Origin: Takakia lepidozioides
Lineage: Eukaryota; Plantae; Bryophyta
Direction: 5' to 3'
Length of the DNA stretch: 64,000 bases
Assembly: GCA_030704615.1 (NCBI GenBank)
Contig: CM060732.1
Coordinates: 7,998,001-8,062,000, forward strand
Shown here: positions 16,168 to 51,618 of the stretch, piece by piece
How the letters are laid out: each line of letters opens with the position of its first letter
How positions within the stretch are numbered: position 1 is the first letter of the stretch
Translations under genes and position numbers: made by a program
The notes under the pieces: model-generated
The model's input: only the letters and a program-made list of their open reading frames with translations
Told to the model about the DNA's origin: nothing
Database searches by the model: none

Positions 16168-16705
16168 TGTCGCGCACCTAAGCATCGTACCACAACATAC
16201 ATCGCTGTCCACCACACAATCTAAGCACACAATCCTAGAAAGCTATACCACAATGATAATGGAAGTGAACATAATGGAAACCCTCCACTCATGAATCCAC
16301 TCAATCACATAAACTAAGTCAAGCCAAGGGCACCCTTGCTAAGGGAATCCACCCTACAAAGCCCCCACCACACTCCCTCTCAATACCTAGAGCTATGGAG
16401 GTGAGAGAGGCTCATGGAGGCTCAACTACAAGAAGATGAGTCTCCTCCATCCTCACAAGGGGAAAACCTATCCTCATGTCCCAAGTGAGGCTTGACACCT
16501 CACTTGGCATGTGAGACCAAATGAAGTCCCAACACACAAAATATAAATATAAATATCTAAAATGTCCTAGTTAACTAGAAGTAGGTAATTCTAGATAACC
16601 ATGACTAAAACCATGACAGCTGTCGTGTACCTAAGAATCGTGCCACAACATACATCGTTGTCCACCACACAATCTAAGTACACAATCCTAGAAAGCTATA
16701 CCACA
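16168..16705 (-). repeat. 3' terminal repeat block Y1-GC-X2-T-Y2 of copy 1
   Basis: Y2 16168-16252 and Y1 16621-16705 (6 differences in 85 bp); X2 16254-16618; Y1/X2 junction is the palindrome GACAGCTGTC (16615-16624). Confidence 0.9.
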
Positions 16706-16717
16706 ATCGCCCCCCTA
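16706..16717 (-). promoter_or_regulatory. Polypurine tract of copy 1
   Basis: Minus strand TAGGGGGGCGAT directly before the TG of Y1; the same sequence occurs in copy 2 at 50312-50323. Confidence 0.85.
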
Positions 16718-16974
16718 GCTGGTGATTAGGTCCCTCTAACACCGGATAGCTGACAAGTATCCATCCCAATAAGATCATCGTTTGGCATCAATCGCCCAAG
16801 TCCTAGTATCTGAAGGCAATAGATCAAGAGGCCGGGTGCAAAAGTAGCCCCATCGTCACTTGCCTTCCTGCAACCCATGGCTCCAATTGGGTGTCCATGG
16901 CATTGAGCTCCCGTTAGCTAGACCTTGGATCACTTGTCAACCTCACCACTATCATGCCCCACTACCTCTATCCA

Positions 16975-18330
16975 AGGCATCGTGGACACAATCATTCTCC
17001 ACTATGAACCTCCTCAAGTGGCGGTGTCAAGCATCCCATGTGCCACCCCCTTGAGCATTTGTCACACACCAACATGGTCGCGGCACCACCAGCATGCCCA
17101 CATAGCATGCAACGCAACCCTGCAGGTACCACTGCAAGGTTGGGATCTATCCTCTCATCCACATGTGGAAGGTGACATGGCGCACAATTGCGCACATGGT
17201 CGTTCCATACCATGCCATCTCGACCCTCCAGAATCAACACTCCTGAAGGCAACACCTCCCGGACCTTTAGAATCACACGACCTGCTATGACATCCAAGGT
17301 CATAGGCGCTGTCTGCTGCAGATACACATAGTCCCCAGGATGAAAACGCCGAACACCTGTCGATATCCCCCTCCACGTATAGTGGCGTATCTCAATGTGT
17401 CTCGGTGTTGGGCAATAGCAAGGTTTTCAAAAGCCATAGGCATGACTCTCTTGAACAACTCTGCCCGCTGGGAACATGCTTGTGTCCACACATCCGGATC
17501 ATCAAGGTTGAGGACTGCTGCAGTCTCCCTACGAATAGATGCAGGCAAATCCGGCTCTCGGCCAAAGAGAAGGAAATAAGGCGAGAACAAGGTAAGTGAT
17601 GCTTGCTTGCTAAACCTGTAGCCCATGGCCAACCAAGGTAGCTGAAGGTCCCAATCTCCCAAGTGTCCCTTCTGCAAGCCATACTTGCGCAAGCCTTGTT
17701 AGACTATTTGCACAACCCTCTTGGCCAAGCCATCAGCCTCGGGATGATCCCGAGAAGTAGTGCGGTGATTTATCAAGGCTTGCTCACACAAAGCCTGAAA
17801 CTCCCCCAAGAACTCTCTCCCCTGGTCCATGAGTACCTCGGCTGGAGCACCAAATTGGCTAAGCACTCGATCTAAGAATGCATATGCAGCCCCCTCACTT
17901 GCCTTGTCATGCAATGCCACCAGTTCAATCCATTTGGAGAAATGTTCCACCATCACCAGCACATACTTATTATGGCAAATCATCAGTGGCAATGGGCTTG
18001 CGAAGTCAAGACTCCAACGATAGCCCAAACCCATCATGGGTAAAGGATGCAATTGTGGAGTAGGTGCATTGAAAGAAGCCCGCACTCTATCACACACCAT
18101 GCACCTTGCCACTAACTGTTGCACATTCGTGTGCATGTCCCGCCACCAATACTGTCCTTACAGCAAACTATAAGTGCGCCGCATCCCAAAATGTCCCAAC
18201 TCCTCATGGGCATGGCGTACCAATCGCGCTCGTTGTGTTGGATGAGGCACAATCCTCACTCGTCCATCCTCCCATACCCGGAGTAGGTGAGTCCCCTCCC
18301 ACTTGAATCTCTTGGTTCGTTGTAGGACCC
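16975..18330 (-). pseudogene. Integrase (HHCC zinc finger + DDE core) with C-terminal PHD finger, copy 1
   Basis: HAHEELGHFG...CMVC; WSLDFA...VLMDQGREF...HPEADGLAKR; then CMLCGHAGGAATMLVCDKCSRGWHMGCLTPPLEEVHSGE*LCPRC (C4HC3; the W codon is mutated to TGA). Several stops and frameshifts. Confidence 0.9.
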
Positions 18331-18595
18331 GATCTCTCTCCTTAGCACTCACACTGGCTGCTGTCTCTCCGGTACGAAGGTAGGCCAACACTGCTGCATC
18401 TTCATATACATCCTTAGCACCACCAAGCTCCTCACTGATCTCTGGATCGTCATGCACACTATCTTTATGACCAATCACATGGGATGGACCAGCTTGAGCT
18501 CCCATTGCTAGAATGCATAAAAATGCAGATGCGTGTCATCCTGGCACCATCTCCTCGTCCGTCTCACCATGCCAACAAGCTCTTGTATCATCAAG

Positions 18596-20093
18596 CTAAC
18601 TTGTGCATGGATTGCGACTCAATCCATCCGCATCCCGGTTGACTATTTTGGCTCGATGCACCACCTGGAAGTCGTATTCTTGAAGCATAAGTGCCCACCG
18701 TGCAAGCTTCCATGTAAGCTTGTCTGACTCCATCAACCACTTCAATGGTTGGTGATCCGTGACAAGAGTGAAGAGATTGCCATAGAGGTAGCATCTAAAA
18801 TGTGACACTGCCCATACTGCAGCCAGACACTCCCCTTCATAGGAACTATACTTCACCTCGGCATCATTGTTCGAGCGGCTAGCATATGCCACTACGAACT
18901 CTCTTCCCTCATTATCCACCTGTGTGAGCACTGCTCCAATCCCCAGCATACTCCAATCCGTATGTAGCTGGAAAGGCCGCCCCCGAATAGGCCGCCTCAG
19001 AATAGATGCAGGAGTCAATCGAGCCTTGAGTTCCTCAAAGGCTTCCTCCTGCTCCTTCTCCCACTGCCACTCCTGACCCCACCTTGGTCAACTTGGCAAG
19101 AGCCTTTGCAATGCTGCTAAATCCCTTGACAAACCGTCGATAATAGTTTGCCAATCCCATGAAAGCACGAACTCTGCTCATATCCATGGGGCGTGGAATG
19201 CATGCAATGGCCTCCACCTTTGTCTATTGAACACCCAATCCTCCAGGGTATATCATGTGGCCCAGATACTCAATCTGATTGTGGAAGAGCTTGCACTTTC
19301 CGGGGTGCAGTTTCAACCTGTGCGCTCTCAAGCGCTCAAACACCACCTGAAGGTGTCTCTCGTGCTCCTCAATCGTAGCACTAAAGATGATGATGTCATC
19401 AATGTAGCACCAGGCGAAGTCTAGCCCCGCAAGAATCCTATCCATGACCCTCTGAAACTCTGCATGAGCATTCTTCAACACAAACAGTAGGAACCGCCAT
19501 TGGTACAAGCAATCCTTCCCATATTGGTCAATCCCCCAGAATGTCGTCTTTTGTTTGTCAGCCTCTTTGATTGGCAACTGGTGGTAACCGGATCGCAAGT
19601 CCAATGTGCTAAACACCTTTGCATGCCCAATGGCATCAAAGATCTCCTCTGGAGTTGGCATGGCATATCTATCGGACTTAGTCTGACGGTTCACATGACG
19701 ATAGTCCCCACACATCCTTCTTTCTGTCCAATTGCCATAGATATCCTTCTTAGCTGGCATCACCGTTGCCGAGGTATACTCCCCGCCTGACAGCTCCACC
19801 AATCCAGCTTCGAACAACTCCATAGTCCGTGACTGGATCAATGACCTCTCCATGTCACTATACCGGTAGGGCCTTCGAAAGATTGGCGTGTCACTTGCCA
19901 AATCAATATGACTCTCCTGACCCTTCAAACTCCCCAAATCCTTCAAACCGAAGGCAAAGCAATTTCTATAAGCCCTTAGAAATCGCTGGATCCTCCGTCT
20001 CTCTCCTCCGGTAACTGTAGGTCCAACATCTGGTTCCCAATTGTCCTCAGTGACTGCAACCTTGGGTACACCAGGCTTGGAGGTAGGAGACAA
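18596..20093 (-). pseudogene. Reverse transcriptase and RNase H, copy 1
   Basis: RMCGDYRHVN, FSTLDLRSGYHQL, CYIDDIIIF, IEYLGH; RNase H FQLHTDWS...VVAYASRS...YEGECLAAVWAV...TDHQPL. Confidence 0.93.
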
Positions 20094-20499
20094 ATCCTTT
20101 GGTTGCTAGATAGCAACCTCTTGGGCCTTGTCCACCCACTCTGATTGTGGCGTAGCCTCCACTTGCTCCGCCATAGCCACCTTGAGAGCATCCTCTGAAC
20201 AAGAAACATTCTCAACCTCTTCAAAAACCTTAGCCACCTTGTCCTCCAACTGATCCTCAGTGTATGACTTTCCCCACTCCTCATACTGCTGCTTGAGAGA
20301 TCCAATAACTCTCTCTTTGCGCATCTCATCCCACATTTGCCATGGGTGTTTGCACCCCATGATCCAGTGCTCGCCCCCACTCACTGCCTCCACCGTCCCG
20401 GTTGGCAGAGAGGGTGCAATATCCAATGGGAGTGCGGAAGTAGCCACCAATGCTTGCAATCTCCATTGCTCAGCCATACACAAGCCAATGACCCATGTC

Positions 20500-21430
20500 A
20501 AGCAATTGAGATCCATTGCCTGACCCAACACCTGGCGTCGTGATGCCTCTGACAAAACTGGCACAGTTGTAGTGTCCGTGGGAAATCCCATTGCCCGCTC
20601 TCGCTCATCCACATTGGGCTCCACCAATTGCTGTAACACACTGTCCCAAATCAACCCAGGACCATTGTCTCGAAAAGCATGAGACGAGGGAAAGCTCATG
20701 AGCGTAGGCAAGGCTGCACGTGGCTACCCCACTCGATTTACCACTGCCAGAGGTGGACGGTCATCATGTCGCACCCTCTGTGGTTGCCTCCCTTGGTCCA
20801 AAATGCCCCAACCGTGAGATTGGGTGGCAGTTGAATGGAATCATAGGTTCTCTTGAGCAACTCTGGTGTGCAAGATTGGTCCACCACAACCTAGGCCTAT
20901 GTGCCCGTGAACCCACTGCAGCTGCATCCAACAATACAGCTAGTCCAATCCATGACCGGATCTGATGTACACTGGCCATAACCCTGGCCCGAGAATCCCC
21001 CATGAGAGGAACATTCTCCAAGATGTAATCTGGAGGTTGCACTTGCCTCACGTGCAAGTCACGCAACACTCGCAGCATCTCCCAAAACAGATGTGATCGT
21101 GCATCTTGCAAACCATTACCATGACCTGCGGGAGAATGTCCTTGGCAAGGCCACCCTCCTATCACCAAATCAATGGGATCATGCCGATCCAAATCCTCCA
21201 CCCCCAGCATGGTAATGTCTGCTGGCAAGGCCTTTTGGTACCCTTGAATTTGCTGAGAGAGGCAACAACTCAAGATACTGATGTGTGAGCAAGGCAACAT
21301 GGCGCATGGAAACACGCCGAGCAATCTCATCCTTCTCCACATACAAGTACTTGCGTACTTTGATCCCTGCTTGCAACACTCCTACAAGCCCAGTGCTCAT
21401 GCCTCCAAACATGTCTAGCAAACAAATCCC
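20500..21430 (-). pseudogene. DNMT3-like C5 cytosine methyltransferase domain inside the retrotransposon polyprotein, copy 1 (frameshifted)
   Basis: Motif I LDMFGGMSTG; II YVEKD; IV DLVIGGWPCQGHS; VI YILENV; VIII AVLLDAAAVGSRAHRPRLWWTNL; IX ERERAMGFP; X RRQVLGQAMD, in canonical order. Confidence 0.9.
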
Positions 21431-21779
21431 CGGGTCAGGTGGTTGTCAGGTAATGGGCACTATGTCCAAAGGAGCTAACTGAGGAGGTCCAGGTGATGTC
21501 ACTGAACCCCCCTCACTCACCAATGGATAGGCCTTCTGCCATGCTTGGTGCACACACTCGCCTGCTACTCGATGCAAATTCCCAACTGTACCCCACAGTG
21601 GAATATGAACAGACACATGAGGAAGCAAATCAGCCTTATTTGCCAATTGTTTGTCCTCATCAGGTGGTGGCCTATCATCTGCATGGCTATTGCCCTCCAA
21701 GAGGTCACCACCCCAAGCCGCCACCCCTGAGAATGCAGCCAATGTGGGCATCATCTTCCTATGATCCACCGCTACATTC

Positions 21780-23970
21780 TCAATAAACCGCACTGGGAGC
21801 AGTGCACGCCGACCATCCCCTGACTGCCATTCCGGCCTGTAGGATGTTGTTTCCTCCCAAAAGTCCAAAGTAAAGCCCATAGGCTACAACACAGCCCCAC
21901 CAACAAGCACATCATAGGACATCGCATCCGTAACAATGGCTTTAGCTCTCAAGATTGAGCTGTCCGTAGGATGATCCGGCTGTAATCGAATGAAGAGCTC
22001 ATGGCGTGTAATCCCTCGCCTTCTCTGAACCACCCAAAGATGTTTGAATTTGGAAAGGGCAAGGCCCCAAATCCGCCTCTGTGAGGCCCAAGCCTGCAAT
22101 TGCTCTCTCCCCAACATCAATGGTTGTGCTCCCGAGTCCAACAAGACCCGCAGTGGCCTACACCTCCTCTCGGTTGGGCCACCCAATTGAAACACTCCAT
22201 CCTGATTGTCCACCAGGACTACCCCAGGAGTCACCATGTTGCGCTCAATGGCTGGCCTAGCTGGCAACTCCTGCAACCTTACAGCTGCCGCTTGCCATGG
22301 TACAGCTGTGGCTGACTTCACCCTCGAATCCAAAGCATCCATAGACTACACCTTATCTGCTTTCTCCGCAGATAGTGCCGATACATCACCACTCTCACAG
22401 AGTCTAGCTGCTAGTCTGAACACAACAGCTGGCCGAATCCCCGGCATTGCAATGGTCATTGCAGAAAATAATGGAGCTTGGCAAACCGCCGTAGCCGCCC
22501 CCAACAATGTACTGGCTGCACCTTGTTTTACAGCACCACCCACTGGCATTTCCCGAGCCACACCAACTCTCCCCAATGGTATTCGTGGCTCTACCTCTGA
22601 CACACTTAGGCGAGCGGGTACCATTGATGGCGTAGGTGGCGCTGTCTTAGCCAATGTAAAGGATTGTGGAAGCCTTGTCTGACGACTCGCTTCCCCCCTT
22701 TGTGGATCAAAATCCACATCCGCTCTTCTTGGTTCAGGAGCACGCGTTGCTGCTCGAGTGACAGCAGCTGCCAAGTCCACATGCAATGGTCCTACAAGTG
22801 CAGCTCCACACATGAAGCCCATACCAATTTGGTCTTCCCTAAGCATAGGAGGTTGTGCAGGTGGGGCTTGAACCTCAAGCCTTGGAGCTGGCGCAACATG
22901 AGTAGTGGCCATGGCAGCAAGACGTTGCTCTAGCTGGGCAAGTCTATCCACCATGCCTTGGTCATGACCTTGACTCTGACCCTGTGCTCCTTGGTTTTGG
23001 TTATGACCTCCACCCTGACCTCTGCCTCCTCTACCTTTCGGGACTACATTGCCTCGTCCTCGGCCACCATTGTTCCCTTGGAACTGGCCTGGCTGTAGCT
23101 CAGGATGCAAGCCATAACAATGGGCCTCCTCATGCCCATACTTTCCACAATGCCCACACTGTAGTTGTGTAGGCTGTGCATGTGCCGACCCTTTGCCTCT
23201 CTCCGAGCAATCCTTCTTGACATGGGGTCCTCCACAATCCCAACAAGTCACACCCGACTATCGTTGGCCTGAGAATGAAGGGAGAGACCTCTGCATCTGA
23301 GATCCTCTCTGTCCTTCCCTCAGCTTCACCTGAGCTCCCTTGTTGCTTGAATACGTTGGGGTAGTGGTTGTTGTTGGCTAGGAGCCCCACTTCATTGTGT
23401 TTCCTTGCCAAACCCCACCATAACACTCGCAGCCCCTCCACCATATTGAGCTCTATCCGCTCTGCCAGCAAAAACACATTTGCTAAGGAGGGTTGGTCCA
23501 CTTGTGGGAGAGTTGCATCCCGCACCCTACTCCTCAGCTCCTTGTCCAGGATCCCATACTAGAACTGGATTCCTGAGCTTCTGTAACCCCTTGGGTTACG
23601 TTTATCAAGCGCCTCATGCGGGTGTAAGCCTCCCTCAAACTCTTAGTTGACCTTCGTTGGATCTCTTGCAAGCTCCGCAACTTCTCTGTCCTTATCCCTT
23701 GGTAGTTTCTCCTCAACTCCTCGAAGAACTCCACAACTGGTTAAATGCAGGCACGTGTGCTGGTGTTGCAGCAGGAGCTTGAGTGGATTTCCCAGCTCCT
23801 GTACCACTTGTCCCACTACTAGTGCTTGCAGTTGGAGATGTTTGTGTAGCTGCTGGTGTCACCGCTGCCCTTGTGCATCTAGTGATGGAGACATAGTTAG
23901 GTGACCAATACTCTCGCCACTCCTCAATCTCTACCATGTGTCCCCGCCTAAATTCATCCAAGCACAATGA
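21780..23970 (-). pseudogene. gag (two zinc knuckles) and aspartic protease, copy 1; gag N-terminus deleted
   Basis: CWDCGGPHVKKDC and CGHCGKYGHEEAHC knuckles; protease VLLDSGAQP...YDVLVGG; collinear with the gag of copy 2. Confidence 0.85.
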
Positions 23971-24788: not shown

Positions 24789-24955
24789 GTTCCCAGCCTA
24801 TAGTGACCGTTCCCACACCTTGGTGACCATTCCCAGACTACGGTGACGGCTCCCAGATTATAGTGACGGTTCCCAGACTACAGTGACGGCTCCCAGACTA
24901 CGGTGACCGTTCCCAGACTACAGTGACGGTTCCCAGACTACGGTGACCGTTCCCA
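24789..24955. repeat. 20-bp tandem minisatellite (~8 units) in the leader of copy 1
   Basis: Consensus cggtgaccgttcccagacta; followed by ~3 units of ctagggtttgtgcatcccatg (~24962-25035). Confidence 0.9.
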
Positions 24956-26372: not shown

Positions 26373-26737
26373 TGATAATGGAAGTGAACATAATGGAAAC
26401 CCTCCACTCATGAATCCACTCAATCACATAAATTAAGTCAAGCCAAGGGCACCCTTGCTAAGAGAATCCACCCTACAAAGCCCCCACCACACTCCCTCTC
26501 AATACCTAGAACTATGGAGGTGAGAGAGGCTCATGGAGGCTCAACTACAAGAAGATGAGCCTCCTCCATCCTCACAAGGGGAAAACCTATCCCCATGTCC
26601 CAAGTGAGGCTCGACACCTCACTTGGCATGTGAGACCAAATGAAGTCCCAACACACAAAATATAAATATAAATATCTAAAATGTCCTAGTTAACTAGAAG
26701 TAGGTAATTCTAGATAACCATGACTAAAACCATGACA
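26373..26737 (-). repeat. 5' terminal repeat X1 of copy 1
   Basis: 365 bp, about 6 transitions relative to X2 (16254-16618); no Y segment on its outer side. Confidence 0.92.
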
Positions 26738-26799
26738 TATATTTTGCATGGTGGAGCATTGAAACAATAATGTACTGAACCAAAAACTCTCATACGGAA

Positions 26800-37331: not shown

Positions 37332-38949
37332 TGGGTTGACCCCATCCATGGACAAGCTGAGGCGGACATGTCATGGGTCGTCCTTCAGAAATTGCCATCT
37401 CTCAGCGGCAGCAGGTGCAAGAGCAAACCCCAGCTCGGGGAGAGCTCGGGAACGTATGAGAACTCATGTGGAGTTCGTGGGAACGCAGGGAACTGTTGAC
37501 CGTGACCGTTGACCATGACCGTTGGAAGCCGTGGTACGGACACCACGGGTTGGCACGGTGACCAGATCGTGGGGATGGCGGGCCGTGAAGGCTCGTGGGC
37601 ATGGTACCACGGGGTATCACGGGGCAGCCCGTGGCCAACGAGCCCCTAGGGCGGGCCGTGAGGAGTCGTGGCGGTTGGAGCCACGGAAGGCCGCGAACAG
37701 CTAGAGTGAAAAAAAAAAATTAAAAAAAAATTAAAATTTAAATAAAAAATCACTCGTTTCGTGGGACCTTGATGGGGAGGCTGGGCTTTGAGAAACAACG
37801 GTTTTGAGCTAGCTGATCCGGCAGAAAAGTCAGAATTGCCTCCCTGTTGCATTTTAACAAAGGGGATTACTTCCCTGTAGGTAATCTTTTCGGGTTTTCA
37901 GCCCAATTCTTAACTATGGGGGAGACCAGCCTGCAGGTAATTCCTTTGGATAGAGTGTGGTTGGGGCCTATATGTACTTCTATTTGCTCCATTTTTTAGC
38001 CTTCAGTAAATGGCGTGGTTTCCTGAGGTGGTTCCATTCTGAGGAATGGCTAGTGGACGTAAGGAGGCACTGGCGGACCCTGTGGAGGCTTGCATGGGGC
38101 CTTGGAGACCAAGTTTCATGAGCTCGTGGAGGGCGGTTTGAGGAGTGTCTACAGGATGCTCTCATGGTCATGCAAGTGAGAGAAGAGAGGAAAAAAGAGG
38201 GTGTTGGGATGAGAGCATGCTGGGGATATGCATTGCTTTAGTTTCCCTTCCTCGTAGCTTTCCACCTTCTCTGTAGGCCGAGACCTTTCCGTAGGTGGAG
38301 GCAAGAGTCAGTCCGGGTTTGGGCTGGGGTGTCCTTGCAGGAGCGACACTGTGAAGTTTTTTTTGGTATGGGGGAGTTGTTGTTTTCATTCTTGTGTTTG
38401 GATCTCCTCCACACCTGCATGCTTGATTGTGCGCCATGCTAGTTTTGTGTGGGCGCTTGATTTTATAGGTGGTTGACTCGGGCTTGATCGCCGATCCAAC
38501 CCTATAGCATGTTGTCGATGGTGAGGTGGGTTGATGACCAGTCAGACCATCTTTGTTTCTCCTGTGGTGAGGTTGGAGGTGATGACCAGCCAACCATAGG
38601 AGTGCCTGCGGTGGATGCAAGTGTAGGTGCAGGCTATGTTAGGAACCTAGTATTCCAAACCATAAGCCGCATCAGGTTCTCTACCCGGATACCTTGTGGA
38701 GAGGGGGTTAGAGACAGGTTCATGACCGGTTGAGTGTCAGTTTGTCAACACGGAGGTGCCACTAGTTGCTGGGGAAAATGCCTGTACGAGCACTAGCAAT
38801 GCTAGCGGGTATACGAGGCGAGGTGTGCAGTTTAGGCCACCTTCACCTCTTGTGTCTTCTACGGAAGGTTGTGATTTTGATTGTGAATCAGGAGAACTCG
38901 CACCGGCGGTGCAAGTTGTTTCCTTGCCATTGTTGTGGGACACAATGGA

Positions 38950-41760
38950 GGAGATGTATGGAGCCACCAAGGGGCCACGTAGGTACTCTGGGGCGGTGGG
39001 CACCATTGAGTTGGATGATTTTATCCAAGAGTTTAATAGTTGGTGTGACTTGCAGCAAATGCGCAATCCACAACTGTTTACGCCTTTCATGGCAAGGAAG
39101 GGGCTGTATGATCTCACATGAAAAATCAAGCCTTCTTCTTTGAAAGAAATTGGTGAGTACAGCGGCAAATTGAAACATGTGAGTATATTTCTTTTTGGTG
39201 GAGTCGATGCGCTTCATCAAGCGTCTCTATTTTCTTTTCATGCCCCCTATCCCCTATTCAACTTACACGCGGTAGCCGACATGCATCTTGTTGTAGGTCC
39301 TAGTTCCTTCATCAACATCCATTTGAGGGGCCGCCCATAGATGATTACCATGAGTTTAGGCGGGGGCACAATGTTGAGATCGAGGAGTGGAGGATGTACT
39401 GGTCACCCGACTATGTCTCCATCACTAGAGGCACTAGAGGGACAAGGGCAACAGCCACACCGGCAGCTTCCACGAGCAGCAATGGGACTAGTAGTACAAA
39501 GGCTACGACGTCCACCCAAGCTACTGTTGCACCAGCACCAGTGGCGGTGTCTGTCTTCAACCCTGTTGTGGAGTTCTTCGAAGAGTTGAGAAGGAACTAC
39601 CAAGGGGTGAAGACAGAGAAGTTGAGGAGCTTGCAAGAGTTCCAAAGGAAGCCTACTGAGAGCTTGAGGGAGGCTTTCACTCGCATGAGGCGCTTGATAA
39701 ATGTAACCCAAGGGGTTACGGAGGCTCAAGCAGTCCAATTCTGGTATGGGATATTGGACAAGGAGCTGAGGAGAAGGGTGCGGGATGCAACTTTCCTACA
39801 AGCGGCCCAACCCACCTTAGCAAATGTGTTTTTGCTAGCAGAGCGGATAGAGCTCAACATGGTGGAGGAACAAGTGGTCATGGTGGGATCTGCTAAGGAG
39901 GCACCACGGCTTAGTGGTGCTCCTAGCCAGCCACTACCTCAACGTGCTCAAGGCAACAAGGGGGCTCAGGTGAAGCCCAGGGAAGGACAGAGAGGACCTC
40001 AGATGCAGGGGTCTCTCCCTTCATTTGTTGGCCAACAACGGGCGGATGTGGTGTGCTGGACATGTGGAGGACCCCATGTCAAGAAGGGTTGCCCAGAGGG
40101 AGGCAATGGTTTGGCACCGGCACAGCCTACACAGTTGCAGTGTGGGCATTGTGGCAAGTACAGGCATGGAGAAGCTCAGTGCTATGGTTTGCATCCTGAG
40201 TTGCGCCCAGGCCAGTTCCAAGGGAACAATGGTGACCGGGGGCGAGGTGGAGCAACCCAAAGAGGACGAGGTGGCCAGGCACGAGGTGCAAGCCAAGGGC
40301 AAGCTCAACATGGCCGGAGACGTGGAGGTCAGGGTGTTGACATGGCCAACCGGCTTCAGCAGCTAGAGCAGAGGCTCGCTGCCATGGCCACAGCTAATGT
40401 GGTACCGGCTCCAAGGCCGGATGGTCCACCTCCTGCTGCTGAGGGAGGAGACATTGGAGGCATGGGATTCATGTGTAGGGCAACACTATCACTAGTGAGG
40501 GGTGCCACTACCACTATCACTGTGGGTGAGGCACCACTACCACTAGTGCCAGGCAACACTACCACTACCACTATGTGTGGGACAGGACTACCACTGGTGC
40601 AAGTGGAGTCAGCTGCGGCAGTGACTCGAGGAGCAGCACGAGTTCCTGAGCCACGGGGTGTGGAGGTGGAGTTGGATCCACAGCGTGGGGAGGCAAGCCG
40701 TCAGGCCAGGCTTCCTCAGTCATTCACATTGGTGGAGACAATGTCAATGCCATCCATGGCACCTAGATCTCGCCCGACTGTTACTGAGGCGGAGGTTATT
40801 ATGCCATTGGGGAGAGCTACACGGGCAGCACCACTACCTAGTATTGCCAAGGCTACGGCAGCTAGTGTGCTGCTGGGGGCGGCCACATCTGTGTGCCAGG
40901 CTCCATTGTTCTTGGCTACCATGATTGCGACGCCGGGGGTAAGACCAGCTGAGGTATTCAGGCTGGCAGCTACACTATGTGAGAGTGGGGAGGTTACTTC
41001 ATCTTCTGCGGAGATAGTGGGAGGTGTAGTGGCGGAGGGATTCTCGGATGTAAAGGTCAAAACTGCCACGGCGGCGCCATCGCAAGCTGCAGCTGCCAGC
41101 TAGGCCAACCATTGAGTGCGCCATGGTGACACCTAGAGTTGTCATGTTAGACAACCAGGATGACATTTTCTGTTTGAGTGGACCGGCACGCAAGAGGTAC
41201 CGGCCACTGCGGGTCTTGTTGGACTCGGGAGCTCAACCATTGATGTTGGGCAGAGCTGCTATTGCAGGTTTGGGCCTCACGAAGGCGGATATGGAGCCGT
41301 GCTCTTTCCAGATACAGACATCTCTGGGAGGATCAGAGCAGGCTCGGGGCATGACACGGCATGTGGCTAAGTGATGAGAGCCAAGGCCAGTGTGACAGAC
41401 GTGGTCTCGTACGATGTCCTTGTTGGTGGGGCAATGTTGTACCCCATGGGCTTCACCCTAGATTTTTGGGAGAAGTCAGCTTCCTATAGGCCTAGATGGC
41501 TGTCAGAGGAGGGCCGGCGTGTGCATCTCCCCGTGACATTCATAGGAGGAGTTGCGGTTGCCCAGCGAGGCAAGATGCTGACACTGGTAGCATTCACAGC
41601 TACAGTGACTTGGCCTGGAGAGTTGTTGGATGGCAACACTCATTCAGAGGATGTGTCACCTCCGGGAGAGCAGGATGACATGCATGGTATGGCAGAGTTG
41701 CCTGCCATGGTTGCTCACACTCCATTGTGGGGCTCGAGCAAGGATTGGCAGCGGATTGCT
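38950..41760 (+). pseudogene. gag and protease, copy 2
   Basis: 569-aa open stretch 39394-41103 with CWTCGGPHVKKGC and CGHCGKYRHGEAQC; N-terminal ELDDFIQEFNSWCD; ~200-bp interruption near 39110-39318; LLDSGAQP. Confidence 0.88.
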
Positions 41761-43191
41761 GATTGACGGGTGCAACTCTATAAAACTTTTGTAAAAATTT
41801 GTAACGCTAGTTTTTGCTGTCTAGCGAGATCAGTAAGTAGAGTAAGTACAGTAAGTAGATGGTGCTTCATTTGATCTGTGTTTCTCTACCCATGTAACCA
41901 AAAGAAATGTGTGTTTTGGTCCAAATGAGAGGATCTAAGGGTGGGGGTAGTGGCGGAGTAGTTGTGGCAGGGTAGCTCAGGCCGTGAGCTTTGAAATGGT
42001 GTTTCAAGATGGACTGAAGGGCCAGGAGAGAAAGGCAGATGTGCGACTAGATGCAAGGCTGTAGGAGCAGGATGAAGAGGTGTGTCTCTTGGTGTGCTTC
42101 TGTATGAGGTGATCTCATAACTGGACATTTTTCAAGGAGCACAAATCCAGGATTGTCAGCTTTTGGACTAACAGGAGAAAATTCTAACATATTGTTTTAG
42201 GACAGTAGTATATGAAGAGGGTAAGCCTATCAATCATGCATGATTCCACCTCATAAGTTGCCACTACTTAATGCTAGGATACAAAGTACCAGTATGCACT
42301 TAATTGAGGTGAGCACTTGAGAAGATATTAGTCATAAAAGATCAGTGTTTTCCTCCACTATGCAAACATACTAACACCCGAGTACAGGTACAGATATCAT
42401 CCACCATGCAATGTGGTCACCAGTAATACCTCACCACATTATTTGCACCTATGAACTAGAGACAACTTTTGCCTCAATGTCCTAATAGGAAAGAATAGCC
42501 ACCCTAGTTCCTAGCTTATGATCACAACAATGATCATAATGAGAACATTCCTAAATGTTGTCCTCCTGTCCCCTGCAAGAGGCAAATCATTCACCTACAC
42601 ACAGCTGCCAGGGTAGAGGCTTTTGTACCGTTAGGAGAGGAGGACAATGCGGGGATTGCACCAGGACCACCTCAGTTGTCACCATTGGACACCACACCGA
42701 TCGTGTGGCAGTGTCCGGATGAAGGCATTTGCCTTCTGGACTTGTTTGGCGGGATCAGCACCGGATTGGCTGCTGTGCTACAGGCAGGTGTATGGGTACG
42801 GGGTTACTTGTATGTGGAGAGGGATGAGACTGCACGACGCGTCTCACTCCGTCATGTTGCTCAGTTGGTGCAGCAGTACCCTGAGTTGTTGCCGGTGTCT
42901 GCAGTTCGTGGATATCAGCAGGCCTTGCCAACAGACATTTCGTTGCTGGGGGCGCAGGATTTGGAGTGGGTTGGCTCCATTGATCTGGTAGTGGCAGGTT
43001 GGCCCTGCCAAGGGCATTCATCAAGCGGGCATGACAATGGATAGCGAGACTCGAGGTCGGGTTTGTTTTGGGAGATGGTGCGGGTTTTGCGCCACTTACA
43101 GCTTCATCAAGCTGTATCTCCAGCATACATTTTGGAGAATGTGCCACTGATGGGCGATTCTCGGGTCAGGGTGATGGCCAGTGTGCATCAA

Positions 43192-46100
43192 CACTAGAAG
43201 AGAAACCGGCTTTTTCCTAGGTTTTTTCCACACTTTTTGTTGTGGAATCAGCCGCAGTCCACACCTGCCGTGGGTGTAAGAAACGATTAGTGCTTTCGGA
43301 CACCCCGTGGACGGCCTGGCTCTCGGGTGGCCCTGTGGAAAAGTCCACGGGTGGCTTTTTCTACGGGAGGCTTTTTCCATGGGTGGTTTTTTTCACGGGG
43401 TGCATGGTGACATGGCCACTGACATAGCCGATAACATAGCTGACATGGCAGAGTGTGAAAAAGGCCAGTGTGGCATGTTTCATGGCGGATTTCACACCTT
43501 GAACAAGCCACTATGCGACATGTGTCATATTTCACACCTTCGACAAGTCACTATGCAACACGTGTTCGTTCTTGTGTGGTGGTACACATTAATTAATTAT
43601 TAATTGATTTCCAATATTAAGTTTGAATATTAATGGATTTAATTTATTGTTATTATTATGATGATGATTATTATTATTATAGGAAAAATGGACAGTGGCC
43701 TTGATGAGAACATTATTAATAACAAAATATTGAAATTATGTTTTTAGAAATTATATTTATTCGCTCAGATACCAAAACACACATTTTGCAGGGAAGGAGA
43801 GTTTGTCTTAGTGTCTATGCTGAGTTGCATCTCCTACTCTCTGTAATCTAATAGACATTCACCTTTTTCCCTCGGTTGTCCCACCCTTGACTGGGGTCAG
43901 AAAAGCATTCATTCCACAGCTTCTCCTCATCTCTGTTACATGTTTCTGGATACTTTCCTATTGTCACTTTGGCAGTATCATGTCAAAATCACTCCAAACT
44001 ATGTACCATCTACCCATGCAGGTTTCTTGTAGCTATCCTTCCACAGGGAATCATAAGTAATCTGGAGCTTGAAATCTGGCCCTCTTGGATGACACTCTAT
44101 CCCTGCTCCTTCAGCTATCCATGCCTCTGCACAGATCATGCATACATCCTTGCATTGTTGTTAGCAGCTGACAATGGTAGCCTAGACTTGTTCAAGCAAA
44201 CACCCAACTCAACTTATCACACCAGTTCATATTCTCAATTGCATCTACCACTCTGTAATCCAAAGGCATTTACCTTCCAAGACGGTTGTCCCACCATTGA
44301 CTGGGGTCAGAAAAGTATTCATTCCACAGCTTCTCCTCTCTGTTACCTATTTCTGGATGCTTTCCTATTGTCACTTTGGCAGTATCATGTCAAAGTCACT
44401 CCAAACTATCAAAGGTTCACTCAACCAGCTAACTTGCAGAATTCTTAAAACATGAAAATTTAGGGCGATTCTGATAAGAGGGGAAAACAGAGTGAAATGT
44501 GTTGAAGAAGGTGCCTTGATTAGCATTGCCTGATTTTATCAATTGTGCCGCTGCTGCTACGGCTTCCAGTTGACCATCTACCCATGCAGATTTCTTGGAG
44601 CTATTTTTCCACAGGGAATCACCCCTTCCCGCATCATTGCTCATAGGTCTCCAAAGCCTCCATCTGCTCCCTTGCTGTGCATATCCTGCAATCATCGCAC
44701 TCCACGACACCACATCTCGTTCAGCCATACTGTCGAACACTTCCTTTGCATCCTCGATGCACCCACATTTGGCATACATGCAGTCCACCAGGGCAGTGTT
44801 TAGAATGACATTGGGTGCAATTCCAGATTTGACGATGTCACCATGGATCTCTTTGCCCTTTTCCAGAGCTCCCAGGCTTGCACATGCATTACAAACAAAT
44901 GTGATGTGGTTGGGCTTCACCCCTTCGCGCAGCAGTTGCTCATAGGTCTCCAAGGCATTCCTACCACACCCATGTTAAATCCTGCCAACATTATATTCAA
45001 CGTGATTAAAGTTCGTTGAGGCATTCCGTTGAACACTCGGTGTGCATTCATGATGCTCCTGCACTTAATATACATGTTCACAAGGGTGTTGAGAAGAAAA
45101 ACACTTGGCGTGAATCCACTTTGGATAATGTGAGTGTGCACCTGCTTTCCAGCTTCCAGACCCTTCAATTTGATGCACTTAAGCAAGAGACAGACATACA
45201 TATCTGAATCTGCTGAAATGCTCCTTGGTTTAAAGGTTGTAGAGCCTCTTTCAGTCTGCCTGCCTCACAAAGCATGAAGAAGAGGCATTATGGACTCCCT
45301 CTCTTGATCCTCTTTTAGAAGCTGTGGTCATGGTTGAGGTGCCTGATTTAAATCAGGGCTGCCAGCCCTGCAATGCACACAAACATGATGTGGCCGGGCT
45401 GAACGCCTTCCCCCATCATTTGCTCATAGGTCTCCAAAGCCTCCATCCCACGTCCCTGTTGTGCATACCTTGCAAGCATCGCACCACATCTCGTTCAGCC
45501 ATAGTGTTGAACACTCCCTTTGCATCCTCGATGCACCCACATTTTGCATACATGTCCACTAGGGTATTGTTCAAAATGACATTTGGTACAATTCCAGGTC
45601 TGAAGGTGTCACCATGGACCTCCTTCCCCTTTTCTAGAGCTGCCAGGGCAGTGTTTCGATTGGCATTAGGTACAATTCCAGCTTTGATGATCACCATGCA
45701 CCTCTGTGCCCTTCTCCAGGGCTGCCAGGCCTGCAATGCATACAAACATGATGTGGCCGGGCTGAACCCCTTCCCCCATCATTTGCTCATAGGTCTCCAA
45801 AGCCTCTATCCCATGTCCCTGCTGTGCATATCCTGCAAGCATCGCACTCCACGACACCTCATCTCGTTCAGCCATAGTGTTGAACACTCCCTTTGCATCC
45901 TCGATGCACCTACATTTTGCATACATGTCCACTAGGGTATTGTTCAGAATGACATTTGGTACAATTCCAGCTCTGAAGATGTCACCACGGACCTCCTTCC
46001 CCTTTTCCAGAGCTACCAGGGCAGTGTTTAGAATGACATTAGGTACAATTCCAGCTTTGATGATATCCCCATGCACCTCTTTGCCGTTCTCAAGGGCTAC

Positions 46101-47432
46101 CAGGCTTGCACAAGCATTGCAATGCACACAAACATGATGTGAGAGGGCAAAAGAGGCTGAAATAGGTCAAAGAAGAAGGTGCCCTCACCACATTGTCTTT
46201 GAACTTGTGTCATGACTTGACCGACCATCAATCCAAAATGACCTCTTGTGTGTGCTGCTTGTGTCTGTAGTAAGGTAATGTCGGATTGGTCTGTGAGATC
46301 GAACCACCACGGTGCAGCTGAGTAGGCAGAGATTGAAACACGGCCTGCTAAGACCAAGCTAACTCTCCCAAGAACGGCGAGCTCGCAAGAATGTTGTGAG
46401 CTTCTCCTCGTCTCATCTCCTCCTCCGCTCCTCCTTCCTGCATCATTTGCTCGACGCCTCCATCCCATGCCCCTGCATATCTTGCGATCATCGCGTTCCA
46501 TCCCTCGGCTACATGGTGTGGCGCAGGAGACAAAAAAAAATGCCAAGTCCCAGCCCTCCTCTGTGTTCACGATTACCCTAATGGGCAACCTTATTAGTAA
46601 TATTTTAACTTTTTAAAACCTAATGGGCAACCTTATTAGCAACTTTTTGACTTTTTAACCTTTTGCACTTTGATTCATTCTAGGTCAGAGGCTAAAATCC
46701 TGCTGCCAGACTTGTCTAGAAAATCAAAACACCATGTAGACAAACATTTGATAATGGTAATAAAATATATTACCATTGGGCTGGTTTGAACACTTGTTAG
46801 TAAATTTAGGTTAGGATTTTTTCGAAATATTCTGGTTTTTTCTTTGATGTGTGAGATGACAAAGTCCAAGCATGTCACATAAACAAGGAGTTCAACGTAA
46901 GGACGATGCAAGTGATTTGTGGAAAAAAGTGTAAATCATGCCTATGCCTATTTGTCCTAGTTGTGTCATAGGTTGCAATAGAACGGGGCCACCTTTGAAT
47001 GCGATCCCCATGCTCATTTCACCAAGGGCATTATAGACTTCATAATGTAGAGATTGAAAATGGGGTGTAGCAGGGGGTGATTCTTCACTTGCTAGTAGCC
47101 CATCGTGCAGATTTCTAAATATGAACATGAAGTTTATAATCATTTTTCAAGGGCATCATTCTCAAACTCCCCATACACCACAATGTGGAAATTCTATGGT
47201 CCCATTTCACACATGTGTGTAACATGCCATGTAAACTAAGCCAACTCCCGCCACGCTCATGGCTGTTTCACACCGTTCTTGTCTCGGGTGTGGATCACAT
47301 GTGAGACACCCCACAGTTAGGGCATATTTTGACCCACACCTTGGCTCACTCTACAGACCCATGATAAAAGCCGTGGAATGTGCCAGGTGTGAGATGGCAG
47401 AGCCGTGGAAAAAGTCGGTTTCTCTTCTAGTG
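43192..47432. mobile_element. Complete non-autonomous Pack-CACTA element carrying PPR gene fragments
   Basis: 26-bp TIRs CACTAGAAGAGAAACCG(G/A)CTTTTTCC; 3-bp TSD CAA (43189-43191, 47433-47435); no transposase. Confidence 0.95.
44480..46140 (-). pseudogene. Captured and rearranged PLS-PPR fragments inside the Pack-CACTA
   Basis: Repeated GKEVHGDI.KAGIVPNVILN..LVDMYAKCG.IEDAK.VF..MAERDVVSW motifs; YVCLLLKCIKLKGLEAGKQVHTHIIQSGF matches the first repeats of the gene at 57334. Confidence 0.9.
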
Positions 47433-48559
47433 CAAGTCCGGTCGTGGCTTGGGTCAGCAGTGTTGCTGGATGCAGCTGCAGTGGGGTCACGGGCTCATCA
47501 TCTACGACTATGGTGGACTAACTTGATGCCACCCGCACTGCTCAAGCGTGCATTTGATGGGGTGCAGTGGCCAGCACACCTCACAGTGGATAGCATTTTG
47601 GACACAGGGAGGCAGTCTGAGCGTGTGAGACACGATGACCGTTCGCCTTTGGCAGTGGTCAACAAGGTGGGTCAACCACGAGCAGCACTACCTACACTGC
47701 TCAGCTTCCCAGGATCGCATGCTTTCTGGGATAGTGGATCTGGCCTCCTGTGGGATGCTCAGTTGCAACAGTTAGTGGAGCCTAATGCCAACGAGCGAGA
47801 GCGGGTTTTTTCCACTGGGACCACGGCGGTGCCTTCTCTTTCTGAGGCATCACCTCGTCAGGTATTGGGGCAAGCGATGGATCTCAATTGCTTGACCTGG
47901 ATTATCAGCTTGGCTATGGCTGAGCAACGTAGAGTGTGGAGTGCACTTCCCTTGACAGTCTCTCTGCCTACCGAGATGGTACAGGCAGTGAGTGGGGGCG
48001 AGCCGGTGAGGACCACAGGGTGTAGACATCCATGGTACACGTGGGAGGTGCTCGAGGTTCAGAGGGAGTTGGCAGCCAAGGCGGCTGTGATGAATAAGGT
48101 TGGGGATTCTTCTCGGGTTGAGGAGGTCCTCAAGGATGAGATGATGGGGCAGGATGAGGCCTTGTCATTGACTGAGCAGGCAGGGAGTACTGCTCATGAG
48201 GTTGCGGCATAGCAACCACGGGACGCGTCTCCTACCTCTAAGTCTGATGGACTTAAGGTTACAGTTACGGAGGACAATTGGGAGCCTGACATTGGACCCA
48301 TTGTCATTGGAGGAGAGAGACGACGTATACGGCGGTTCCTGAGGGCTTACATGAATTGCTTTGCCTCTCGTGCTATGGTGGAGGAGCATGAGAGACATGT
48401 TCAGGTTGTGCATCGACCGGGTTTGGTCAATAGGGATGCGGATGGATTGAGTCGCAATCCATGCACGAGCCAGCAGGATGACACTGGAGCTCGGTGGCAT
48501 GGTGAGACGGACGAGGAGATGGTGCCTGAATGACATGCATCTGCCTTTTTGTGTATCTT

Positions 48560-50055
48560 GACCTACAACAGGGATGACTGTAGACGGAGTGTATGAGGAC
48601 CTTGAGGCTAGTGATGAGCCAAGTGGTGCCAGAGATATACATGAGGATTTAGTTGTGTTGGACTACCTCCGCACTGGAGACACGACAGCTAGTGTGACTG
48701 CCAAGGAGAGGGATCAGATCCTGCATCGAGCCAAGAGGTTCAAGTGGGAGGGGATATACCTGCTTCAAGTGTGGGAGGATGGTCGGGTGAGGATTGTGCC
48801 TCACCCAACACAACGTGCACGGTTAGTGCGGCATGCCCATGAGGAGTTGGGGCATTTTGGAGTGCGACGCACTCATAATTTACTGTAGGGGCAATATTGA
48901 TGGCGTGGTATGCACACATAAGTGCAATAGTTTGTGGCTAGGTGCATGGTGTGTGACAGGGTGCGTGCTTTATTCAACGCCCCTACACCATAGTTGCATC
49001 CTTTACCAATCATGGGATTGGGCTACAGGTGGAGTCTTGACTTCGCAGGGTCGTTGCCACTGACGATGCGCCGCCACAAATATGTGTTGGTGATGGTGGA
49101 GCACTTCTCCAAGTGGATTGAGTTGGTTCCATTGCCTGACAAGGCTAGTGAGGGGGCTGCGTATGCATTCTTGGATCGTGTGCTTAGCCGATTCGGTGCT
49201 CCAGCTGAGGTACTCACGGACCAAGGGAGAGAGTTCTTGGAGGAGTTTCAGGCTTTGTGTGATAAAGCCTTGATAGACTACCATACCACTGATCATCCTG
49301 AGGCCGATGGCTTGGTAGAGAGAGTGGTGCAGACGGTGAAGAGGGGTTTGCGCAAGTATGGCTTGCAAAAGGGACACCTAGGAGATTGGGATCTTCAGGT
49401 ACCTTGGTTAGCCATGGGCTATAGGTTTAGCAAGCAAGCATCACTTGCCTCCTTCTCACCATATTTCTTTCTCTTTGGCCGAGAGCCAGATTTGCATGCG
49501 TCTATTTGCAGGGAGGCTGCAGTATTCCTCAACCTTGATGATCCGGATGTGTGGACACAAGCATGTGCCTAACGGGCAGAGTTGTTTAAGAGGGTCATGC
49601 CTATGGCTTTTGAGAACCTTGCTATTGCCCAACACCGAGACGCATTGAGGTATGTCATTATACATGGAGGGGGATAGCGACCAGGTGTTTGGCGTTTCCA
49701 CCCTGGGGACTATGTGTATCTGCAGCAGACAGCACCTACGACTTTGGATGTCACAACATGACATGTGATTCTAAGGGTCAGGGAGGTGTTGCCTTCAGGA
49801 GTGTTGATTCTGGAGGGTTGAGATGGCATGGTATGGAAGGACCATGTGCGCGATTATGCGCCATGTTACCTTCCACATGTGGACGGGAGGATAGATCCCA
49901 ACCTTGCAGGGGTACCTGCAGGGTTGCGTTGCATGCTATGTAGGCATGCTCGTGGTGCCGCCACTATGCTGGTGTGTGATCGATGCTCAAGAGGTTGGCA
50001 CATGAGATGCTTGACACCACCTCTTGAGATGGAGATTAGTTATGTCCACACTGCT
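48560..50055 (+). pseudogene. Integrase with PHD finger, copy 2
   Basis: HAHEELGHFG; WSLDFAG...LTDQGREF...HPEADGLVER; CMLCRHARGAATMLVCDRCSRGWHMRCLTPPL...CPHC; many nonsense codons. Confidence 0.9.
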
Positions 50056-50323
50056 TGAGATAGTGGAAGTGGATATAACTAGTGGCAGCCAACAAGACAT
50101 GGGAGGCCAAGCTCATAGGAGTCAATACCCGAGATCTCAGGCTCAAGTTCACAGGTTGCAAGACGGCGACTAACGATGGGGCAACTCTTGTTCCCGGCCT
50201 CTTGATCTATCGAGTTTGAGTGTAGTAGGGACAGTGGTGGAGGACTTATTGAGGCTATGGCCACTATCACATCTTGTGGCTATCTGGACTTAGAGGGACT
50301 TAAGCGCCAGCTAGGGGGGCGAT

Positions 50324-51618
50324 TGTGATGGACTAGTGGCAGCCTAGTGGTAGACTAGTGGTTGCACTAGTGGTGGCTAGTGGCAGCCTAGTGGTTGGAC
50401 TAGTGGCTGCAATAGTGGTGGCTAGTGGCTGCACTAGTGACAGACTAGTGTTTGGTGTGCACATGTGTTGTGTAGTTTTAGACAACGATGTAGTTGTGTA
50501 GCGATATGTATGCGCACGACAACTGTTAAGTTATTTTACCACTAGTGTGAAATTAGCTAGGAAATAGCTAGCTTTTATATATTGATATTTGGGATTGATC
50601 CAAGTGTCAATCCAGGGGCCAATATATGTTTGGGCACTTGGCGTTGTTATCTTCACGGCAGATTGCGGTGGGCTCATCTTTCTCGAGTTGAGCCTCACCG
50701 CGTCTAGCTATGGCGCCGTAGTGTGGATTCCCCATGGCGTGGGGTGCACTTGGCTCGACTTAATATATGAGTGATGTTTTCATGTGCAAGTATGTGAGTT
50801 TGAGAGAGCTTGTGTGCTTGTATCATTTCTTCTTTATCATTGTGATGGATTAGTGGCAGCCTAGTGGTAGACTAGTGGCTGCACTAGTGGTGGTTAGTGA
50901 CAGCCTAGTGGTTGGACTAGTGGCTGCACTAGTGGTGGCTAGTGGCAGCCTAGTGGTGGACTAGTGGCTGCACTAGTGATATACTAGTGTTTGGTGTGCA
51001 CATGTATTGTGTGGTTTTGGACAACGATGTAGTTGTGTAGCGATATGTATGCGCACGACAGCTGTCAAGTTATTTTACCACTAGTGTGAAGTTAGCTAGG
51101 AAATAGCTAGCTTTTATATATTGATATTTGGGATTGATCCAAGTGTCAATCCATGGGCCAATATATGTTTGGGCACTTGGCGTCGTTATCTTCACGGCAA
51201 ATCGCGGTGGGCTCATCTTTCTCGAGTTGAGCCTCACCGCGTCTATGGCACCATAGTGTGGATTCCCCATGGCGTGGGGTGCACTTGGCTCGACTTAATA
51301 TATGAGTGATGTTTTCATGACATGCAAGTATGTGAGTTTGAGAGAGCTTGTGTGCTTGTATCATTTCTTCTTTATCATTGTGATGGACTAGTGGCAGCCT
51401 AGTGGTAGACTAGTGGCTGCACTAGTGGTGGCTAGTGGCAGCCTAGTGATGGACTAGTGGCTGCACTAGTGGTGACTAGTGGTTGTCTAGTGGTGGCTAG
51501 TGGCAGCCTAGTGGTGGACTAGTGGCTGTACTAGTGATAGACTAGTGTTTGGTGTGCACATGTGTTGTGTGGTTTTGGACAACGATGTAGTTGTGTAGCG
51601 ATATGTATGCGCACGACA
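50324..51618 (+). repeat. Tandem terminal repeat block Y-X-Y-X-Y of copy 2; Y contains a CTAGTGG-core minisatellite
   Basis: Y 50324-50521, 50841-51060, 51379-51618; X 50524-50839, 51063-51377; junctions GACA-GC-TGTC (51057-51066) and ttatca-t-tgtg. Confidence 0.92.

Follow-up and report, generated by a model that had tools for sequence, protein, structure and literature searches.

A Ty3/Gypsy family of mosses and liverworts in which a DNMT3-like methyltransferase domain closes the Gag-protease frame ahead of a predicted readthrough stop codon

The closest described system is KnitGypsy-Dnmt3 of the charophyte Klebsormidium nitens, in which the methyltransferase (DNMT) domain shares an ORF with reverse transcriptase (RT) and RNase H (RH), and which carries DIRS-type repeats (PMC5890265). 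Here and below, statements on cited works hold for the portions of each source that were consulted. In yeast, the Klebsormidium domain produced no methylation, a result that its authors call inconclusive, and two dinoflagellate retrotransposon Dnmt3 domains methylated CG sites de novo in the same host. The same authors discuss accidental methylation of the host and self-limiting transposition and, for a LINE-borne enzyme, methylation of RNA. SymbioDIRS-Dnmt3 of Symbiodinium, described in that work, methylates CG de novo in yeast and possesses a tyrosine recombinase. Finally, the EpiLTRs of Cymbomonas and Euglena (bioRxiv 10.64898/2026.05.21.726589) are LTR retrotransposons that combine a cytosine methyltransferase with a chromatin reader.

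In this study we focus on a window of 64,000 nucleotides from the moss Takakia lepidozioides (contig CM060732.1, positions 7,998,001 to 8,062,000), which contains two copies of one retroelement with a DNA identity of 68-85% across matched stretches. Copy 1 occupies 16168-26737 on the minus strand and copy 2 about 38200-51618 on the plus strand (Table 1). The family shares with KnitGypsy-Dnmt3 the Gypsy domain set, a non-permuted Dnmt3-type domain, purifying selection and the arrangement A-coding-B-A-B, which the 2018 paper gives for DIRS and finds to be the same in Klebsormidium. It differs in that the DNMT ends the Gag-protease (PR) ORF before a leaky-type stop, and in its land-plant hosts; we consider it a related variant of KnitGypsy-Dnmt3 and not a member, since the single frame is here divided by a conserved in-frame stop. 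SymbioDIRS-Dnmt3 likewise has a Dnmt3 domain and the A-coding-B-A-B repeats, whereas the window family carries a DDE integrase (IN), TG..CA ends and a 4-bp target duplication in place of the tyrosine recombinase. In EpiLTRs, by contrast, the DNMT is sister to DNMT4 and is accompanied by a DAM domain and a chromodomain, and the preprint itself sets them apart from streptophyte Gypsy-DNMT3.

Table 1. Positions of the features of the two copies and of the insertion in copy 2 (window coordinates)
Feature	Position	Strand	Remarks
Copy 1, 5' terminal repeat A	26373..26737	-	365 bp, begins TGTCA; flanked by target-site duplication TATA at 26738-26741
Copy 1, gag remnant with two zinc knuckles	22346..23955	-	Several frameshifts, N-terminal part of gag deleted; aligns to P0004 from residue 68
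Copy 1, aspartic protease region	21884..22345	-	Core LLDSGAQ 22144-22124
Copy 1, DNMT3-like C5 methyltransferase domain	20451..21445	-	Motifs I-X in canonical order, catalytic Cys retained; frameshifts and one stop
Copy 1, in-frame TAG CAA CCA (predicted readthrough signal) between Gag-PR-DNMT frame and RT frame	20100..20108	-	TAG = 20108-20106
Copy 1, reverse transcriptase and RNase H	18599..20105	-	PF00078 8.5e-27, PF17917 3.9e-36
Copy 1, DDE integrase, then C-terminal PHD finger (17111-16970)	16970..18535	-	PF17921, PF00665 1.2e-14, PF00628 5.8e-7
Copy 1, 3' end	16168..16717	-	Purine tract 16717-16709, B 16707-16621, GC, A 16618-16254, B 16254-16168 (ends GACA), TATA duplication 16167-16164
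Copy 2, 5' leader homology, gag, protease	38198..41763	+	gag start near 38945, interruption 39110-39306; LLDSGAQ 41216-41236
Copy 2, DNMT N-half, motifs I-VI	42700..43191	+	One in-frame stop
CACTA-type DNA element within copy 2 DNMT	43192..47432	.	26-bp inverted ends, CAA duplication, PPR gene fragments aboard
Copy 2, DNMT C-half, motifs VIII-X	47433..47930	+	
Copy 2, in-frame TAG CAA CCA, position as in copy 1	48210..48218	+	TAG = 48210-48212
Copy 2, RT start fused to RNase H end (internal deletion), integrase, PHD finger 49930-50010	48213..50025	+	
Copy 2, 3' repeats B-A-B-A-B	50322..51618	+	Junctions GACA(A/G)CTGT, terminal GACA

Both copies are dead. In copy 1 the start of gag is missing, and no fewer than 12 stops and several frameshifts are present; despite this decay its two A repeats are 98.4% identical, with six differences that are all transitions, and its B repeats 93%, and possibly this copy was mobilised in trans after it had become defective. 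Its 5' leader contains tandem arrays with units of about 67 bp and 20 bp (24303-24968). Copy 2 is missing the RT core and the greater part of RNase H, and its DNMT is broken by a stop, the CACTA insertion and a 2-codon deletion in motif IX; a 5' repeat A was looked for in this copy and not found. A short fragment of a third family member, from the C-terminal region of integrase, lies at 36814-36909 on the minus strand. The CACTA element carries scrambled fragments 65-80% alike to an intact, single-exon PLS-class PPR gene at 57316-60465 (plus strand; E, E+ and DYW domains; 1049 codons from stop to stop), and is a Pack-CACTA-like capture of an RNA-editing factor gene. For the PPR gene itself the database held no close relative, with identities of 46-67% over the region searched and the best, 67%, over the C-terminal 350 aa; in a tree of 67 rows it groups with those of liverworts and mosses at a support of 94/89, which is under the starred level, and the row most identical to it is a protein from Ginkgo.

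The ends of copy 1 read A (365 bp), coding region, purine tract, B (87 bp), GC, A and B, starting with TG, ending with CA and flanked by TATA; two equal LTRs are absent. Among 25 metagenome loci examined, the same layout was found in L054, L067 and L068 and parts of it in L006, L048 and L076, and target duplications of 4 bp were read in L054 and L068 (CATA; probably one locus) and in L067 (AAGG). A run of G precedes repeat B in both window copies, in L055 and in five of the six Sphagnum-type loci printed. At the inner B-A junction the two element ends are joined in the palindrome TGACAGCTGTCA or a close variant of it; this junction is present inside the 3' repeat block at window positions 16616-16625, 50519-50528 and 51057-51066 and in L006, L048, L056, L067 and L076, and suggests a replication intermediate with joined ends. 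The 3' block of copy 2 has one extra A-B unit. The order Gag-PR-RT-RH-IN, the DDE integrase, the TG..CA ends, the short target-site duplication and the purine tract are those of Ty3/Gypsy elements, and because of the A-coding-B-A-B arrangement we file the family as Gypsy-type with split repeats, as PMC5890265 does for Klebsormidium. Identity as a DIRS or split-direct-repeat tyrosine recombinase element was rejected, given the DDE integrase and the lack of a tyrosine recombinase in both frames of L055.

The methyltransferase domain lies downstream of the protease core in both copies. In copy 1 (minus strand) the motifs are FGGMSTG (21409), YVEKDE (21343), GWPCQG (21156), ENVPL (21018), LDAAAVG..WWTNL (20931-20872), ERER (20606) and RQVLGQAMDLN (20540-20505); in copy 2 (plus strand) FGGISTG (42745), GWPCQG (42997) and ENVPL (43135) are followed, past the 4.24-kb CACTA insertion, by the remainder at 47466-47888. 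PF00145 matches the middle piece of copy 1 (E 3.9e-13) and the N-half of copy 2 (1.7e-12, the stop read as X), and three of six DNMT pieces scanned singly gave no Pfam family. These coordinates and profile matches bear out the preliminary description, which had placed C5 methyltransferase motifs in both copies and proposed this Pfam check. It had also set the domain between protease and RT in each of them, which holds for both, although in copy 2 only about 50 RT codons remain downstream because of the loss of the RT core and most of RNase H. The protease piece of copy 1 had no Pfam match in the family scan; PF13650 matches weakly on its copy 2 equivalent and on the intact locus L055.

The order of the motifs, I to X with no circular permutation, led us to reject a DRM identity. 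P0001, an intact relative that shares 72% identity with the N-half of copy 2, retrieved DNMT3A first among solved structures (E 6e-12), with DRM and M.HaeIII behind, and a profile of 23 sequences gave 2e-17 for DNMT3A/B, 1e-8 for DRM and 6e-7 for M.HaeIII. The predicted structure of the L055 domain (pLDDT 89.5) led Foldseek to DNMT3A/B at 6e-19; in the VIA comparison this model aligned to DNMT3A/B with a Z of 27.3 and an rmsd of 2.6 over 266 residues, against a Z of 23.5 for M.MpeI, 19-21 for DNMT2, 18.0 for DNMT1 and 16.8 for ZMET2. By best hits in sequence and in modelled fold, the domain is thus classed as a DNMT3-like C5 methyltransferase, as in the preliminary description, and is closer to DNMT3 than to DRM, DNMT1, CMT, DNMT2 or bacterial enzymes; the label rests on best hits because identity is only 20-26% and the tree described below holds no host DNMT3. 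No alignment with DNMT3A could be made for the residues that recognise the target base. Host plant DNMT3 (PpDNMT3a/b, MpDNMT3b) shares the canonical motif order and the de novo methyltransferase class and bears a C-terminal DUF3444 (PMC6453930, PMC10952607), whereas the window domain lacks DUF3444 and sits in a retroelement ORF; no DUF3444 family was found in the intact ORF1 proteins scanned.

Catalytic residues are widely kept: among 274 extracted domains the catalytic-Cys pattern is present in 251, EN in 263 and the motif VIII pattern in 262. We consider that the domain is probably active in catalysing the C5 methylation of DNA. Some other role, either methylation of RNA or nucleic-acid binding or scaffolding in a replication cycle with split repeats and no PBS, appears rather improbable. 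It would fit the inactivity of the Klebsormidium domain in yeast, the RNA methylation raised for the LINE-borne enzyme (PMC5890265) and the replacement of PC in motif IV of related elements, which reads GWECQ throughout the 10 single-ORF type A elements, near-duplicates among them, and G[WF]EC in 68 of the 98 of type B. However, motif IV is GWPCQ in all five elements with the leaky-type stop (the window copies and L055-L057), conservation extends to the Cys, ENV and the arginines of motif VIII, and the modelled fold is nearer to DNMT3 than to DNMT2.

Relatives are numerous. A search with the copy 2 N-half kept 67 proteins out of 1679 candidates, among them Marchantia polymorpha, with its best matches at 69-75%, and Calypogeia fissa and Sphagnum troendelagicum at 68-70%; the relatives from Marchantia, Calypogeia and Sphagnum, at 68-77% identity, are annotated as hypothetical proteins, and S. 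jensenii is a member of a relative cluster. No protein named K. nitens appeared in the protein and cluster searches, in which Closterium relatives were present. Of 599 stretches from a scan of metagenome contigs, 385 were confirmed and 80 loci kept; L055-L057 are 48-49% identical to P0001, and the label Sphagnum-type is used because the domain sequence of L004 equals P0100, which clusters with Sphagnum proteins. A profile search returned 584 clusters at E < 1e-30. The Atlas search added only one PF00145 cluster, mostly Streptophyta, and viral contigs gave only phage-type methyltransferases (27-53% over short stretches), used as outgroup only. Two family members, P0046 and P0457, bear the names of bacterial MAGs (Obscuribacterales, Minisyncoccia) and are likely plant or algal contigs in bins. 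In one DNA run of the host, 41,390 contigs fall on copy 1 at an identity of at least 80% and cover 30 of 30 bins, which is neither a copy number nor a measure of how many copies bear the DNMT; the family thus has many divergent copies in this host.

Both DNMT and RT were found in 113 sequences, 15 of type A (DNMT before RT; named members include Closterium) and 98 of type B (DNMT between RNase H and integrase). Type B represents a second large architecture, RT-RH-DNMT-IN-PHD (P0270, P0465, P0472, P0334 and 95 others), and since its named members include the chlorophytes Haematococcus, Monoraphidium and Chromochloris, Gypsy-DNMT3 reaches beyond streptophytes. Quick trees with SH-aLRT support only, which included 24 of the 98 type B sequences and no host DNMT3 row, separate types A and B in the RT (99) and group type B in the DNMT (96), the type A groups being unresolved at the base; the window copies fall with rows from Marchantia, Calypogeia and Sphagnum (99). 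Moss and liverwort branches in the DNMT tree are short (0.1-0.2 changes per site) despite the long separation of these lineages, and horizontal transfer among bryophytes is possible.

The ratio dN/dS between the window copies is 0.12 in the DNMT (294 codons) and 0.14 in the integrase, and it is 0.09-0.20 in six further pairs, with dS near saturation in several. The domain is therefore maintained by purifying selection. Between the window copies dS is 1.5 in the DNMT and 0.6 in gag and integrase, which hints at an exchange of the DNMT module between subfamilies. That a fragment of a host DNMT3 was captured by a single element and is now decaying as a neutral passenger has next to no probability: both window copies are indeed broken, but the dN/dS is about 0.12, the domain has the same position in proteins of Marchantia, Calypogeia, Sphagnum and Closterium, it shows neither DUF3444 nor introns, the marks of host plant DNMT3, and types A and B are set apart in the RT tree as well as in the DNMT tree. 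The dN/dS values and the trees led us to rule out this reading and, with the shared position across hosts, to regard the domain as a heritable part of the Gypsy element. The preliminary description, which had excluded a chance capture and named a dN/dS near 1 as the contrary outcome, is upheld here. CG depletion was rejected as evidence of self-methylation, the observed/expected ratio of 0.41-0.70 in elements marking no greater deficit than that in the host PPR gene (0.35) or in the window (0.46); neither CG nor CHG depletion separates self-methylation from host methylation.

The DNMT is followed in both copies by an in-frame TAG CAA CCA, 140 (copy 1) and 115 (copy 2) codons past motif X. Across this junction 55 of the 80 loci could be aligned with the L007 probe, the other 25 falling short of the probe or not aligning. 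A stop occupies the homologous codon in 54 of the 55 (42 TAG, 12 TAA; one TAC), followed by CAACCC in 47, and these 55 loci amount to about one lineage, because most belong to one subfamily with near-duplicates; in all, there are some four independent contexts. Three of the other 25 loci show the junctions TAG CAG TTA (L055 and L057) and TAG CAA TCA (L056), so that UAG-CAR-YYA is found in five of five elements (copies 1 and 2 and L055-L057), with both frames in register. The residues upstream of the stop are not alignable between subfamilies, yet the signal is kept. As controls, CAR follows only 2 of 50 decay stops in or just after the same domains, and CAR-YYA accounts for 8 of 2416 codon pairs in L055. 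This locus is open on both sides of the stop, with 1369 codons for Gag-PR-DNMT and then 1047 codons for RT-RH-IN-PHD. Motif X is present in 46 proteins, of which 36 terminate 78-165 residues past it and four sooner; the remaining ones are three Marchantia gene models that continue into RT (P0020, P0028, P0045) and three of a single-ORF clade. In Marchantia and Calypogeia the stop is placed from such protein ends and not from junction DNA, and its presence there is suggested accordingly.

The same kind of in-frame stop between structural and enzymatic frames is described for TMV (UAG-CAR-YYA), MuLV, SIRE1 and Tca2, the CAR-YYA context being that of TMV, where it alone directs readthrough; the same source gives a Gag:Pol ratio of about 20:1 as needed by retroelements (PMC2194720). 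The window family differs from these in having a protease and a methyltransferase upstream of the stop, and its readthrough is predicted. We regard readthrough as very probably the route to Pol. The alternative, that the stop is a true end, with Pol reached by splicing, reinitiation or an internal promoter and the DNMT still linked to Gag, seems improbable. In its favour, the three Marchantia gene models splice across the junction, and the Tca2 flanks directed no readthrough in yeast (PMC2194720). Moreover, the Sphagnum-type context is CAA-CCC (five of six signal positions) with an ATG directly after it, 6 nt past the stop, and the first Met comes 14 codons past the stop in L056 and 5 in L057, so that reinitiation is possible in these three cases. 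Yet the two Marchantia models that were aligned, P0020 and P0028, join at different places, CAR-YY is kept where the neighbouring residues cannot be aligned, with the frames in register, and no early Met exists in L055 or copy 1, where stretches of 117 and 85 Met-free codons after the stop span conserved RT residues. RNA folds 3' of the stop were rejected as evidence, as they had no shared shape and no shuffled control. The preliminary description had seen the DNMT inside the polyprotein of a Gypsy family; the family assignment stands, but the domain closes the Gag-protease ORF before a conserved stop, and is not simply a domain of Pol. The window holds two dead copies of a Ty3/Gypsy family of mosses and liverworts whose first frame encodes Gag, PR and a DNMT3-like domain and ends at a conserved UAG-CAR-YY stop likely read through to RT-RH-IN-PHD. 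The anatomy, the motif conservation, the purifying selection, the stop and its context, the split repeats and the 4-bp target duplication are observations about which we have almost no doubt.

In the mechanism that we propose, ribosomes would mostly halt after the DNMT and yield Gag-PR-DNMT, and a few percent would read through to RT, RNase H, integrase and PHD finger. Since the DNMT closes the Gag-PR ORF ahead of the stop, the enzyme is predicted to be made at capsid level; each Gag would carry it into the particle, where it would encounter the newly made double-stranded cDNA and methylate it before integration guided by the PHD finger. We give slightly better than even chances to the cDNA in or near the particle being the main substrate, with the new copy pre-marked so that it is taken for host heterochromatin or kept in check from the outset, and with integration guided by the PHD finger. 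Gypsy polyproteins of Chlamydomonas (Gypsy-7a_cRei, REM1; PMC9940879) also have a PHD finger, for which a part in targeting insertion has been proposed; unlike in the window family, the domain list given for Gypsy-7a contains no DNMT. Bulk synthesis of the enzyme is not required by the wider group, because in related elements, 98 of type B and 10 single-ORF ones of type A, the DNMT is part of the Pol frame.

It is less likely, though worth considering, that the domain acts mainly in trans or after integration, Gag-PR-DNMT or a released domain methylating chromosomal copies, rival elements or host chromatin. Its place on the abundant side of the stop, which would supply far more enzyme than one cDNA per particle calls for, points in this direction, as do the accidental host methylation and self-limiting transposition discussed in PMC5890265. 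On the other hand, the DNMT has no attached chromatin reader, the PHD finger being in the second frame, and selfish elements are selected to act in cis. Gag fusions, moreover, go into particles, which also speaks against action in trans.

A DNMT-bearing Gypsy element is, as an idea, already published, and the preliminary description was right that this kind is known from charophytes; the published kind is closer than it implied, as KnitGypsy-Dnmt3 shares the DIRS-type repeats. Its statement that none is described in a land plant agrees with the full-text literature searched, in which subscription journals were thinly covered: no land-plant Gypsy-DNMT3 was found there, the named elements in print being those of algae, nor any mention of the junction stop. 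According to a 2019 opinion paper, land plants such as tracheophytes lack transposons that encode methylases (PMC6338049), and PMC12344493 and bioRxiv 10.64898/2026.05.21.726589 mention only streptophytes, citing or echoing the 2018 work. No such element is mentioned in the consulted portions of PMC6453930, PMC10952607, PMC6317226, PMC9940879 and bioRxiv 2021.02.12.428880, and neither Marchantia nor Sphagnum appears in the searched text of three supplementary files of PMC5890265. In the literature covered, no account was found of the land-plant range, the Gag-side position with its leaky-type stop, or the open first frames in Marchantia.

Our work extends Gypsy-DNMT3 to land plants, and calls for caution with counts of PF00145 in bryophyte genomes, which include transposon domains. 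Tentatively, and with less confidence than the steps above, one may picture a single ancient capture of DNMT3 by a Gypsy-PHD lineage that spread through the whole green lineage and in land plants shifted to the Gag side of a leaky stop, giving particles lined with a de novo methyltransferase; the element would write its own methylation on new copies, and the surplus enzyme of a high-copy family would add to bryophyte methylomes independently of host DNMT3, CMT and RdDM. Why transposons carry an enzyme that silences them has been unsolved since 2018, because the known hosts, Symbiodinium and Klebsormidium, are not easily studied by genetics and the Gypsy domain showed no activity in yeast. The leaky-type stop turns this question into a concrete prediction, namely that the enzyme is present at the level of Gag and not of Pol. 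Open first frames are annotated as hypothetical genes in the reference genome of Marchantia, for instance Mp4g09160 (1278 aa), and with the mutants, methylomes and transformation that exist for this plant, the question becomes directly testable in Marchantia.
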